From IMG/VR virus record IMGVR_UViG_2718218452_000012: DNA of 64,000 bases. One strand, given 5' to 3'. Position numbers: made by a program. This document shows positions 42,001 through 45,000 of this stretch, piece by piece. Every line of letters starts with the position of its first letter. Within the stretch, counting starts at the first letter, position 1. The stretch is from a virus (lineage: Duplodnaviria > Heunggongvirae > Uroviricota > Caudoviricetes).

Positions 42001-45000
42001 CAGCCATATGGCGGACCGGTTGCCATTACGCCGTACACACTGATGCAGGCGGTGGCTATTGAAGGAGAGCCACAGGTCGGCCCTTCATCTGAGCCGGATT
42101 GGTACTACGTCATCGTACTGGCCGGGCAGTCCAATGCCATGGCTTACGGTGAAGGGCTTCCGCTGCCGGATTCATACGATGCTCCGGATCCGCGCATTAA
42201 ACAGCTGGCGCGCCGCAGTACAGTGACGCCGGGCGGGGCTGCCTGCAGATATAACGATATTATTCCGGCTGACCACTGTCTGCATGATGTGCAGGATATG
42301 AGTACGCTGAATCATCCGAGGGCTGACCTGAGCAAAGGGCAGTACGGCTGTGTCGGCCAGGGTTTACATATTGCCAAAAAACTGCTCCCGTATATCCCGA
42401 ATAACGCGGGGATCCTGCTGGTACCATGCTGTCGTGGTGGTTCGGCATTTACCCAGGGCGCGGAGGGGACATTCAGCGAGTCCACGGGGGCCAGTCAGGA
42501 TTCGGCACGCTGGGGGGTGGGCAAGCCGTTATATCAGGATCTGATTTCCCGCACAAAAGCGGCATTGCAGAAAAATCCCAAAAACGTTCTGCTGGCCGTC
42601 TGCTGGATGCAGGGTGAGTTTGACATGAGCGCCGCCACCCACGCACAGCAACCTGCGCTGTTTACAGCCATGCTGACACAGTTTCGTGCTGACCTCTCCG
42701 TGTTTAACGCGCAGTGCCATGGTGGCAGCGCTGCAGATGTGCCGTGGATTTGTGGTGACACGACGTATTACTGGAAAAATACATACGCTACCCAATACGA
42801 CACCGTGTACGGCGGGTATAAAAACAGGGAGAGTGAGGGCGTTTATTTTGTGCCCTTCATGACAGACGGTAACGGCGTCAATACCGCCACTAACGCGCCG
42901 GCAGAAGATCCGGATATTCCGGCATCAGGATATTACGGTGCGGCATCGAGAACGAATGGAAACCAGGTATCATCAAACCGCCCGACACATTTCAGTTCAT
43001 GGGCGCGCAGGAGCATTATTCCGGATCGTCTGGCAACCGCTATTCTGAACGCAGCCGGGCGCACCTCAGCCTTCATCAGTGGTAAGGCACCGGAAATCAA
43101 ACCCTCGCCCGGCGGCAACACGCCATCGGGTCCGTCTGCAGATACGTCCGTTCGCACAATCTCCCTGCTGCCGGCAGCCGGAGAGGCTGCTGCGCAGGGC
43201 TGGAGCATTAAGGATGGCGGAATTCAGTTGTCAGATGGTGTATTTAAGATCATCAACCGCATGGTGAATCCTCCTTGGAGGGGCTAAATGATCGAGTTTT
43301 AAGGGCACGTAGCGAGTTCTGTTTGATCATTGCAGAACTTAGCGGGAGGCGCCATGCGTACATCACTAGTGTTATTCCTTTTATCATTTTCCTTGTGAGT
43401 TCTGGCTGCGCATTGCGCAGCCTTTTTTTTATGACCTGCCACTGGCAGATGGTCATCCTGTGATTTGATTCCGCTTCCGGCTTTTTAACTCTGTTCCTCT
43501 ACACGGGAGAAATTCGATGTCGATTAAACATTACGATGTTGTCAGGGCGGCGTCGCCGTCAGACCTTGCGGAAAAGCTGACACACAAACTGAAAGAGGGC
43601 TGGCAGCCATACTTTTTTAATAAACAGTAAACAAAAAAGTCAAGAATTATTCATTCTGTTCTTTCATCATCGGCCACAGCAATACCACAATGCCGCAGAC
43701 CAGAGCGCCATCAGTCAGTACCAACATTATCCTGCTGGTGAAATCCATCATCACCATCACTAAAAGCAGGATCACAACAGCAAGCAGACACAGTTTATAA
43801 AACAATGTTCAGAAAACGCATTCAGCATGCCTAAGGTTCTATTCCTACGAATAGCCAACTTGCAACTTAAAATATTATTTATGCAGCCAATTAAATTCTG
43901 GTCCTTACAATATCAACCTGAAGATTCTTATCTTGTGCTGATTGATAAATGACAAACCTTTTACTACCTGCATTGAAAGAAGTAGACAAAACCAGACAAT
44001 TATCATAACGAGCAAGAACATAATACCAACCATCATTATAATTAATCATTTCATATTCTTTCTTAAACTGTGGTTTGTAATATCCTGTCAGAAATGAAAA
44101 AAGCCAAAAATATGCCACAAAAGCAATCATCACAATCTCAAAAAAATGTTTTTTATAAATGGCTTATCATAGAAGCATGATACCGATAAAAATCGCCCAT
44201 AAGATCTTATCGAAATTGTAACCGCCAGCGCAATCGCTGCTGACAGTAGCAAAAGAGGTACCTGAATCTTCTGTCTCAATATAGAAAACTCAATAATTGC
44301 CGGCACAAACAATAATTCCACAGCAAAATAAAGGCGAAATACATTTAGCTCTTGCATAGAATGTTTTCTTTTCACTGCGAAAAAGAATACAACACCAATA
44401 CCCCAACCGATAAGAAATATAGCAATGACGATAACTGCAAAAAATAAACTTCTGGCAACATCATCAACACCTGCACCTACAATCCACCATGGGAAGCCGT
44501 AGTAAAAAGAAGTACCCCATCCATAGAAATAAGCACTCCCCCATCCAAGGCATCCCATGTAGGCAATAAAAAGTGAAGAACTCCTGAGCAGCGCACCATC
44601 CTTCATAACCACCCCAATACAAGATGATAACATTGGCTTACAACTCATAACAAAAGCAATTCAATGCCGTCAAGAGGTTACAGGCTAAAAAAACTCTATT
44701 ACATAGCAGCCAGCATGTTTACCGTACAAGTACAACTCAGGGCATAAAAAAAACCCACTCGGCAGCGGGTTTATACATTTTTTACAACATACCAAATTTG
44801 CATGAAGTATATGGCTTTTAATCCAGTTTTGCAATATTTTGCTGTAAAAATGCTGCCTTTTGTTTTGAACGTGTTCTCGTCACAAGCAATAAAGCATCAC
44901 TATCAAGCTGTAGAAAAATGTGCTTCATTGCAACCCAGCGTTCAGTAAATGTCTCGGACCAGTTTTTTGTTGTCACTCCCACCAATGATGCCAGTGTCTG

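Follow-up and report, generated by a model that had tools for sequence, protein, structure and literature searches.

Prophages are known hot spots of rearrangement in Escherichia coli, and homologous recombination between lambdoid prophages generates large inversions and hybrid prophages in EHEC, with seamless crossovers located in shared homology. In phage 434 (OL657226.1) the late genes are arranged in the order TciB, a small ORF/STnc100-like RNA with a terminator, nanS (616 aa), pinholin, SAR endolysin and spanins, and the ybhC-site prophages of O26, O103 and O111 E. coli have an equivalent late regulatory region. Genes for NanS-p sialate O-acetylesterases, with DUF1737 and SASA domains, lie between Q and the lysis genes (PMC10462455). 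U-turn and MMBIR events and palindrome-centred inverted duplications zigzag between strands, restart upstream and copy pieces from nearby or homologous templates (PMC4417113, PMC3315005); U-turns mostly span <50 bp and ~85% show microhomology (PMC4417113). Fold-back artefacts occur in both ONT and PacBio reads, in which a forward strand is followed by its own reverse strand, often with no intervening sequence (PMC12870357).

Here, we analyzed a 64,000-nt window of E. coli prophage DNA that is made up of parts of three lambdoid prophages, A, B and C, which occupy separate chromosomal sites in close relatives. Prophage A is Qin-like, the site of prophage B is serU/mtfA, and prophage C is phage-434-like and located at ybhC (the lambda attachment site). 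Prophage A reaches 28934 and prophage C begins at 43613 (the latter sequence is referred to as R), and the 14.7-kb patch between them consists of 14.3 kb of prophage B, block B2, and a 360-bp segment, S. Followed along the window, the strand path is up in A, down in B, up in S and down in R, and the pieces meet at J0 (28934/28935), J1 (~43252) and J2 (43612/43613), all of which are blunt and non-homologous, with microhomology of 0 nt at J0 and J2 and 1 nt at J1.

28337-29532, no strand: J0, a perfect palindrome of 2x598 nt with zero spacer, centre 28934/28935 (repeat and complementarity analysis)
28935-43251, plus strand: block B2 of prophage B, 14,317 bp (near-identity to E. coli C7)
43251-43253, no strand: J1, nanS of prophage B (...AAGATCA) joined bluntly to the left end of S (TCAACCGC...) (sequence comparison)
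43253-43612 (left edge 43252/3), plus strand: S, phage-434-type segment, inverted, 360-361 bp (100% identity to phage 434 and O26)
43612-43613, no strand: J2, codon 32 of the nanS copy in S, nanS' (...GCCATAC), joined bluntly to the complement of the native pre-S sequence (TTTTTTAATAAAC...) (sequence comparison)

Block B2 contains the 5' part of exo, dicB, immunity and replication genes, Q, three tRNAs, a TerB pseudogene, DUF3927, STnc100 and codons 1-446 of nanS. Aligned to E. coli C7 (4152683..4138367, minus strand), its 14.3 kb contain only 3 substitutions, while R shows 11 differences from C7 over 20.4 kb. The three prophages are intact in C7, B from integrase through tail genes, and lie 0.5 and 1.17 Mb apart; essential DNA separates the B and C sites in relatives. 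The window is not C7 itself, which is ruled out by 45 substitutions in prophage A and by a terminase gene that is intact in the window and frameshifted in C7. The hybrid arrangement was not seen in relatives: among 5426 complete E. coli genomes, none carries J0, none crosses J1 or J2 and none has S in the orientation of the window. Likewise, a 35-mer spanning J1 is not in viral_contigs, a 38-mer spanning J2 was not found in genome_contigs, viral_contigs or metagenome_contigs, and an exact look-up among 15 billion proteins returned no junction-spanning protein. The first-pass annotation named as a refuting outcome that related genomes show this order to be the ancestral arrangement of a single phage; the window order occurs in 0 of the 5426.

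The integrase of prophage C adjoins ybhC, as in C7, and by identity the prophage is of phage-434 type, with 99.88% identity to phage 434 over 3389 nt (window 43613-47000), 100% in S, and an unchanged gene order from nin/Q to tciB. The LpxR moron, the YlcG-like gene, the Q82-like Q, tR', the 247-aa membrane protein and TciB all match. The late features on this side of the junction are the following.

44818-45591, minus strand: Q' antiterminator (Q82-like) of prophage C (Pfam PF06323, E=1e-91)
44751-44772, minus strand: tR'-like intrinsic terminator just downstream of Q' (terminator scan; annotated there in phage 434)
43891-44648, minus strand: gene for a 247-aa membrane protein, phrog_1521, function unknown (O26 alignment; PHROGs)
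43647-43805, minus strand: tciB/DUF3927, small membrane protein of prophage C (Pfam PF13064; PHROG 1470, TciB-like), the counterpart of which in phage 434 is annotated TciB

As had been noted, prophage C stops soon after Q. The cut falls directly behind its Q-dependent early-late genes; downstream of Q' the window has the membrane-protein gene and tciB followed by the break, with no holin, endolysin or structural gene. The two membrane ORFs described there do exist, at 44130-44648 (172 aa) and 43891-44133 (80 aa), but they are not separate genes; a change from A7 to A6 near 44155, which C7 also carries, splits the single 247-aa gene. Relative to phage 434, therefore, the membrane-protein gene is frameshifted, the first 360 bp after TciB is inverted and the remainder is missing: of a complete 434-type late region (nanS, pinholin, endolysin, spanins and morphogenesis genes), the window holds nothing past the inverted 360-bp stub.

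What lies at this stub was previously read as a duplicate of the 5' end of the prophage B nanS. The features on which that reading bears are these.

41604-41776, plus strand: STnc100-family small RNA, prophage B copy (Rfam RF02076, 100.8 bits versus a gathering score of 47)
41914-43287, plus strand: nanS of prophage B (nanS_B), truncated and chimeric, 457 aa (ORF call and Pfam)
43404-43422, no strand: terminator-like hairpin and T-run in S (terminator scan), with a twin at 41801-41819 that comes after the prophage B STnc100

The direct repeat, put at 210 bp, is real, although it measures 208 nt and sits one base away from where it had been placed (43404-43611 versus 41801-42008, ~98%). Its origin is another matter. 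The five mismatches fall at B-side positions 41811, 41816, 41829, 41834 and 41931, and at all five the copy shows the 434/O26 allele and not that of prophage B. Base 43612 (C) is also unlike 42009 (T) and agrees with the phage-434/O26 allele, and hence belongs to the copied segment. In addition, S reaches 150 nt farther left than the repeat, into sequence that is not B-like. S in its entirety matches phage 434 and O26 RM10386 at 361/361, on the opposite strand and meeting R at the identical base, and is also 100% identical in many E. coli prophages, where it is placed directly after tciB. It contains the 3' four-fifths of an STnc100-like RNA gene (37.6 bits, E=1.9e-6, under the gathering score), the terminator, the nanS' leader, and an ATG at 43517 with 32 codons. 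Since S is natively the sequence that follows tciB in prophage C, though on the other strand, it is prophage C's own next sequence flipped in place, and not a copy from prophage B. When S was re-inverted in silico, the resulting 800-nt sequence matched genomes at 100%; this native order is covered to at least 80% in 677 genomes, with 316 records at >=99% identity.

The join at 43612/43613 is sharp, as first described, and non-homologous, with related genomes all matching from 43613 on. It keeps all six A/T of the native A6 run, with 0 bases lost or gained at breakpoint 'a', which in the 434-like prophage separates tciB from the STnc100-like gene and is exactly where S ends. Prophages B and C do converge tail to tail, but not at this point. 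Comparison with the native alleles places the true B/C boundary at ~43252 (43251-43253), within the prophage B nanS at codon 446, where the A at 43252 can be assigned to either side and accounts for the 1-nt microhomology. Here, native codons 1-446 run into 11 foreign codons (INRMVNPPWRG) from S, so that the chimeric protein retains DUF1737 and SASA and the DUF6645 C-terminal domain of the 616-aa native protein is gone; the native continuation, CCAAGCAGAGC, is present in C7 and O26. Compared with NanS-p, nanS_B and nanS' share the DUF1737 and SASA domains and the position between Q and the lysis genes, whereas the prophages of the window are without stx, nanS_B is without the C-terminal lectin-like domain and nanS' is a 32-codon stub. 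Q, TciB, the STnc100-like RNA and the NanS esterase are known late modules of phage-434 and Stx-phage type, and there is no new gene, RNA or system.

Neither J1 nor J2 joins equivalent positions in shared sequence, and nanS_B and nanS' are still homologous past the codon-446 break. An explanation of codon 446 as the homology edge of the nanS alleles was rejected, as the B and O26/434 alleles continue identically beyond it. The locus resembles the recombination between EHEC lambdoid prophages in that prophages of different sites are united and long homologies are available (nanS 98-99%, dicB-exo 99%). It differs in that the joins lie at non-equivalent or mirror positions with an overlap of 0-1 nt, rather than at seamless crossovers. 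The description of 43612/43613 as a recombination junction holds for the sharpness of the join; it is one of three blunt, unique joins that look more like an assembly chimera than recombination of two prophages.

At the opposite end of the patch, the left arm of J0 belongs to the exonuclease gene of prophage A and the right arm to that of prophage B, and the join falls 404 nt into each gene. The first arm mismatch occurs at offset 599, giving a perfect palindrome of 1196 bp, and the wider arms (27743-28934 and 28935-30126) are 99% complementary with 0 nt between them. J0, the join at which the fold-back signature was assessed, thus consists of sequence joined to its own reverse complement without a spacer. 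In the left arm the alleles are A-type at 27910-28336 and B-type at 28527 and 28658, a pattern indicating that B first folded back on B and that a homologous switch then led into prophage A. This switch between A and B, located between 28336 and 28527 (408-598 nt from the J0 centre) inside shared homology, looks to be the only one of homologous character. In recombination-proficient E. coli with SbcCD, a chromosomal perfect palindrome of 460 bp is already lethal (PMC4245961), and J0 should therefore not persist in a normal isolate.

We infer that the patch with its three joins is probably a fold-back or chimeric-read misassembly rather than real chromosome. Several features favor this. S and R are neighbors in the native order, with the orientation of S as the sole discrepancy; the three joins are found nowhere else in the genomes, contigs and proteins searched; and the joined pieces are near-identical to C7, in which the prophages lie far apart. 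Furthermore, J0 is a zero-spacer palindrome with B-type alleles in the inner left arm that should be non-viable in SbcCD+ E. coli, a biological route is unparsimonious and all three joins fit within one long-read span (14.7 kb). Permutation analysis indicated that deriving the window from a K-12-like or C7-like order needs at least three non-homologous inversions with re-used breakpoints, or a loss of >1 Mb. Under a misassembly, one or a few fold-back or chimeric long molecules or reads would have bridged two contig ends stalled in repetitive prophage DNA. As in phage 434, tciB in the real prophage C would be followed by the STnc100-like RNA, nanS, pinholin, endolysin and further genes, and the real prophage B, at its own site, would have nanS in full length together with the lysis genes. 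J0 shares with the described long-read artefacts (PMC12870357) the zero-gap join to its own complement, and the joins lie within one read length; unlike those artefacts, J2 is offset by 360 nt and J1 joins different loci, and what is there a property of reads must here have survived assembly and polishing. Several observations count against an artefact. Elsewhere the window is of good quality, with the terminase gene intact and an IS3-family copy resolved; one simple fold-back read accounts for J0, but not for J1 or J2; J2 turns back 360 nt upstream and not at the same base; and for J1 an extra chimeric join is required, placed precisely on the far side of breakpoint 'a'. The exact, loss-free re-use of this breakpoint is less like a random chimera than like one molecule physically broken at a single point, whether in vivo or in library preparation.

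Other routes to the joins were rejected. Concatenation of short-read contigs, with B2 and S separate, does not fit with an uncollapsed 598-nt repeat at J0 and a resolved IS3-family copy, and S and R, neighbors in the native order, meet with none of the k-mer overlap expected of graph contigs. Restriction-site or proximity-ligation joins fail because there is no CATG in the native J0 sequence, the GATC near J1 is off the join and J2 has no site. By inspection, a Cas9-type cut at identical A and B targets has no NGG in register.

A real, recent and complex rearrangement of the chromosome in this strain is a less probable alternative. From a break at 'a', serial template switching (MMBIR/U-turn) or multi-break rejoining would have copied S backwards onto the broken end, jumped to codon 446 of nanS_B, continued through 14.3 kb of prophage B, made a hairpin-type turn-around in exo and switched by homology into prophage A. 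Both sides of 'a' are kept base-perfect with S ending there, as expected were 'a' the position of a template or DNA end, and the A-to-B switch lies inside shared homology, as expected of break-induced replication (BIR). The strand-switching path runs via nearby or homologous templates, S adjoining 'a' and B having homology to A and to C at its points of entry and exit, and the otherwise good quality of the window is in keeping with real DNA. It is to be weighed against this that the route needs at least three inversion-type steps or a duplicated 14.3-kb templated insertion, that no intermediate occurs in the 5426 complete E. coli genomes, and that classical end-joining is, to our knowledge, absent from E. 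coli. The geometry of J2 is that of a U-turn inversion, with restart upstream on the opposite strand (PMC4417113), and the strand zigzag resembles that of U-turn/MMBIR and palindrome-centred inverted duplications, but an offset of 360 nt without microhomology is not typical, as such joins usually have some and the three joins here have just 0-1 nt. Moreover, a 1196-bp zero-spacer palindrome should be lethal or quickly deleted in sbcCD+ E. coli (PMC4245961). It is unlikely that the joins mark a natural isolate with a fresh chromoanasynthesis-like scar of three blunt template-switch or end-join junctions in 14.7 kb. Such a scar would include a 360-bp U-turn at the phage-434 late-operon site and a 1.2-kb perfect palindrome with zero spacer linking two prophages, and would imply lost SbcCD control or an unstable intermediate caught by sequencing.

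Simpler biological origins fare worse. That one recombination or deletion joined two prophages tail to tail, leaving a duplicated prophage B nanS 5' end as its mark, is very improbable, even though B and C are convergent, their nanS 5' regions are 98% alike and C has nothing after tciB. The alleles of the copy (five sites and 43612), its 150-nt extension into non-B-like sequence, and a segment end that is exactly the native neighbor of 43613 all speak against it. A single deletion also predicts rc(S) beside R where the window has S, and B and C occupy different sites in relatives with essential DNA between them; orientation and alleles already contradict this model. A programmed invertible switch of fimS or Hin/Gin type, flipping a terminator and the nanS start for late or esterase expression, has next to no chance and is refuted for practical purposes. 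Although S is small (360 bp), contains a terminator and gene start and is inverted precisely without base loss, no inverted-repeat pair brackets the native locus (L001 11641-12001) or window 43253-43612, and the flipped state occurs in 0 genomes versus 677 that cover at least 80% of the native order. The left flank is nanS_B and not native nanS' codon 33, and no adjoining recombinase is annotated in phage 434 or O26, where the neighbors are tciB, the membrane protein, Q and nanS. The sole candidate flanking repeat for inverting S is a 9/12 match (CCATGCGGTTGA versus CCATACGGCGGA) located 6 nt off the breakpoints, and the TCCGCC it predicts is absent. Recombinational inversion via nanS_B and nanS', or via the pair of nanS 5' repeats, would leave either seamless hybrids or an interior in inverted orientation, and not S beside R, and a staggered-break inversion with duplication predicts rc(S)-R rather than S-R.

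If the patch is a misassembly, as we consider probable, its value is for quality control only. The window would then be unsuited to infer truncated prophages, a duplicated nanS or three neighboring prophages, and other findings that rest on 28935-43612 or its edges would share the doubt. The analysis also offers a simple way of spotting such errors, namely to re-invert the doubtful piece computationally and see whether a widespread sequence emerges. Taken at face value, prophages B and C would both be without lysis and morphogenesis genes and locked in, and NanS_B would lose its carbohydrate-binding C-terminal domain. Were the joins real, they would represent a rare sequence-resolved case of multi-step non-homologous rearrangement between prophages in wild E. 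coli, with a long perfect palindrome tolerated in the chromosome, which is relevant to the part that SbcCD and replication restart play in shaping bacterial genomes. Among the minor features of prophage C, a promoter-like site lies near Q' at 44834-44806, and the Q' start as annotated in C7 and phage 434 gives a gene of 44818-45507.

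The window is a mosaic. Its segments, which are widely separated in the close relative Escherichia coli C7 (NZ_CP010240.1), come from a Qin-like prophage (A), the prophage of the serU/mtfA site (B) and a phage-434-like prophage beside ybhC (C). In C7, each of the three is intact, integrase through tail genes.

Segments of the window and their positions in C7
1-28934: A, Qin-like; C7 ~3.61-3.636 Mb, plus; 45 substitutions, 4-5 indels
28935-43251: B, at serU/mtfA; C7 4152683..4138367, minus; 3 substitutions in 14,317 bp
43613-64000: C, 434-like, beside ybhC; C7 5308944..5310035 and 1..19295, plus; 9 substitutions, 2 indels

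Three joins, J0 (28934/28935), J1 (~43252) and J2 (43612/43613), bound a single 14.7-kb patch (28935-43612) between A and C, the last part of which is a short segment, S (43252/43253-43612). The three prophages of C7 share one orientation in the order C, B, A, and in the K-12-like genome OkiPb01675 the order is C, A, B with C opposite. The difference implies either that C7 carries a large inversion of at least ~0.7 Mb or that its assembly is at fault; the C7 record begins inside C, 1.09 kb from J2.

The first-pass annotation had B and C meeting tail-to-tail at a junction marked by a duplicate of the 5' end of the B nanS gene. The direct repeat is indeed present (41801-42008 and 43404-43611; 208 nt, 98% identity, 5 mismatches), both copies comprising in turn a terminator-like hairpin, the nanS leader and the first 32 nanS codons (ATG at 41914 and 43517), and the sharp break at 43612/43613 is borne out in that all related genomes lose homology exactly there. 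However, S carries the 434/O26 allele and not the B allele at every diagnostic site, extends further than the repeat and lies in the opposite orientation, which contradicts a plain tail-to-tail recombination that duplicated part of B. The interpretation is partly supported.

BLAST against 5426 complete E. coli genomes matched S at 100% in hundreds of them, always on the strand opposite to the sequence from 43613 onward and abutting 43613 at the very same base. For example, S lies at 964888..965248 (minus) in O26 RM10386 and the C sequence rightward of J2 at 965248..967636 (plus), and in phage 434 (OL657226.1) the matches to S (361/361) and to 43613-47000 (99.88% identity) meet at one base. S is therefore C's own continuation beyond tciB, inverted in place. 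The phage 434 order is a Q82-like Q, tR', a 247-aa membrane protein, TciB, a small ORF/STnc100-like region with a terminator, a 616-aa SASA esterase (nanS), a pinholin, a SAR endolysin and spanins. As a control, S was re-inverted in silico, and the resulting 800-nt native-order sequence was matched at 100% over its full length, with at least 80% covered in 677 genomes and 316 records at ≥99%. The arrangement in the window, with S beside C as it stands, occurs in none of the 5426 genomes. For practical purposes, a programmed invertible switch can be discarded: no terminal inverted repeats were found in S, no recombinase is annotated beside it in phage 434 or O26, and the flipped state occurs in 0 genomes versus the 677 covering the native order.

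Both J1 and J2 trace to one breakpoint, 'a', ~25 nt inside the STnc100-like RNA gene of S, where the native 434/O26 sequence reads ...TTATTAAAAAA|TCAACCGCATGG... At J1 the window reads ...TTTAAGATCA|TCAACCGC, the A at 43252 being assignable to either side, and the native B nanS continues past this point as CCAAGCAGAGC, as does the 434/O26 allele. At J2 it reads ...GGCAGCCATAC|TTTTTTAATAAAC, where the native nanS start in S goes on GGCGGACC. Both sides of 'a' are thus kept with 0 bases lost or gained, but joined to the wrong partners. The B nanS is truncated at codon 446/616, and the resulting 457-aa ORF retains DUF1737 and SASA but lacks the C-terminal DUF6645 domain, the lectin-like module known from NanS-p (PMC10462455). 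The sole three differences of the 14.3-kb B block from C7 (42357, 42729 and 42795) cluster in a 440-nt stretch of nanS, 42357 having the 434/O26 allele; this may stem from gene conversion between paralogous nanS genes or from polishing with mixed paralogues.

Features of B and S around nanS
40584-40833: B tRNA cluster (tRNA-Met/Ile2-like CAT, Arg-TCG, Arg-TCT)
41007-41435: B TerB-family gene, between the tRNA cluster and DUF3927; internal stop
41604-41776: STnc100-family RNA, B copy; 100.8 bits, well above the Rfam gathering score
41801-41819: terminator-like hairpin and T-run, start of the B repeat copy
43231-43433: STnc100-family RNA, diverged 434-type copy, in S; 37.6 bits, below the gathering score
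43404-43422: terminator-like hairpin and T-run, start of the S repeat copy

Both late regions place an STnc100-family gene between the DUF3927/tciB gene and the terminator and nanS; the phage 434 annotation gives the 434-type copy as an ORF of 63 aa for a 'putative membrane protein'. The internal stop of the TerB-family gene is also annotated in C7 and other genomes.

Between the arms of J0 (27743-28934 and 28935-30126) the spacer is 0 nt. The arms show 99% complementarity, which is perfect for 598 nt on each side (1196 bp), and are centered 404 nt into the exonuclease genes of A and B. The left arm is A-type at 27910-28336 and B-type nearer the center, at diagnostic sites 28527 and 28658, so the center is B folded back on itself, passing into A by homology 408-598 nt away. 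Because A and B stand head-to-head without a spacer, DicF (27835-27886 plus, 29983-30034 minus) and dicB appear as mirror images. J0 was found in no other complete E. coli genome. In E. coli, SbcCD cuts a perfect chromosomal palindrome of 460 bp on both sister chromosomes, killing recombination-proficient cells (PMC4245961); at its greater length, J0 should be lethal in sbcCD+ E. coli and would not be expected to persist in an ordinary isolate. J0 bears the sequence-level signature of a fold-back artefact and is exactly like those of nanopore and PacBio libraries, in which forward and reverse strands of one molecule are joined end to end, often without intervening sequence (PMC12870357).

The arrangement matches no known natural configuration and is most likely not a real biological feature. 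Its parts are ordinary: a phage-434-type late regulatory region and a NanS-p-type esterase module, as known from Stx and non-Stx lambdoid prophages alike. We favor, with some reserve, one or a few fold-back or chimeric molecules that would have bridged two contig ends within repetitive prophage DNA, because J0 is fold-back-like and of doubtful viability and because all three joins would fit inside one long read. Exact junction searches of contig collections and exact protein look-ups found no independent assembly carrying the joins. However, a plain fold-back leaves J1 and J2 unaccounted for, the way in which 'a' is re-used without loss resembles a single physical break within one molecule, and the window outside the joins is well polished. 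For these reasons a real complex rearrangement is retained as an unlikely but serious alternative.

Such a rearrangement could have been a template-switch cascade from a break at 'a', in which S was copied backwards to the broken end, after which the path jumped to the B nanS, ran through 14.3 kb of B, turned around in exo and entered A by homology. In its geometry J2 resembles U-turn inversions, but these are mostly <50 bp and ~85% show microhomology (PMC4417113), of which only 0-1 nt is present here. A route by inversions would, by our own bookkeeping of segment order, take three or more non-homologous events that re-use breakpoints to get from the order of OkiPb01675 to the window, and the same path from a C7-like order would close a circle missing ~1.7 Mb. 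That the window preserves a genuine scar of template switching at several junctions, its long palindrome being tolerated, seems improbable. The outcomes predicted by concatenated short-read contigs, by restriction or proximity ligation, by a Cas9-type cut, by staggered-break inversion and by recombination between nanS copies all differ from what the window shows, and the arrangement behaved neither as a homologous prophage-prophage junction nor as an invertible switch in tests for these.

Features of C right of J2
43647-43805, minus: tciB/DUF3927
43891-44648, minus: 247-aa membrane-protein gene, single, split
44772-44751, minus: tR'-like terminator
44818-45507/45591, minus: Q antiterminator gene
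45983-46942: LpxR lipid A deacylase moron
52139-53352: IS3-family element, between cII-like and cro/cI-like genes
52420-52536: ALIL frameshift pseudoknot, within the IS3-family element
56969-57027: lambda cIII thermoregulator

As the first-pass annotation held, C has no lysis or structural genes downstream of Q in the window. The two membrane ORFs it described after Q are there, but are really one 247-aa gene, broken near 44155 where an A7 run has lost one A, a change common to the window and C7. C is probably defective whatever the junction, because of the IS3-family insertion; C7 has this element at the identical place. C is essentially phage 434 (nin region to tciB 99.9% identical to OL657226.1), with a lambda-type int/xis adjoining ybhC and the Red genes gam, bet and exo. 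Compared with C7, gam has an extra cytosine at 57603, close to its end; this homopolymer-length difference alters the Gam C-terminus. Rfam also identified the following elements, ordinary for Qin-like and serU prophages.

Further Rfam elements
13918-14302 and 16812-17204, minus: two cspA-type thermoregulator leaders (cspB and cspI region)
37114-37288: sok/hok module
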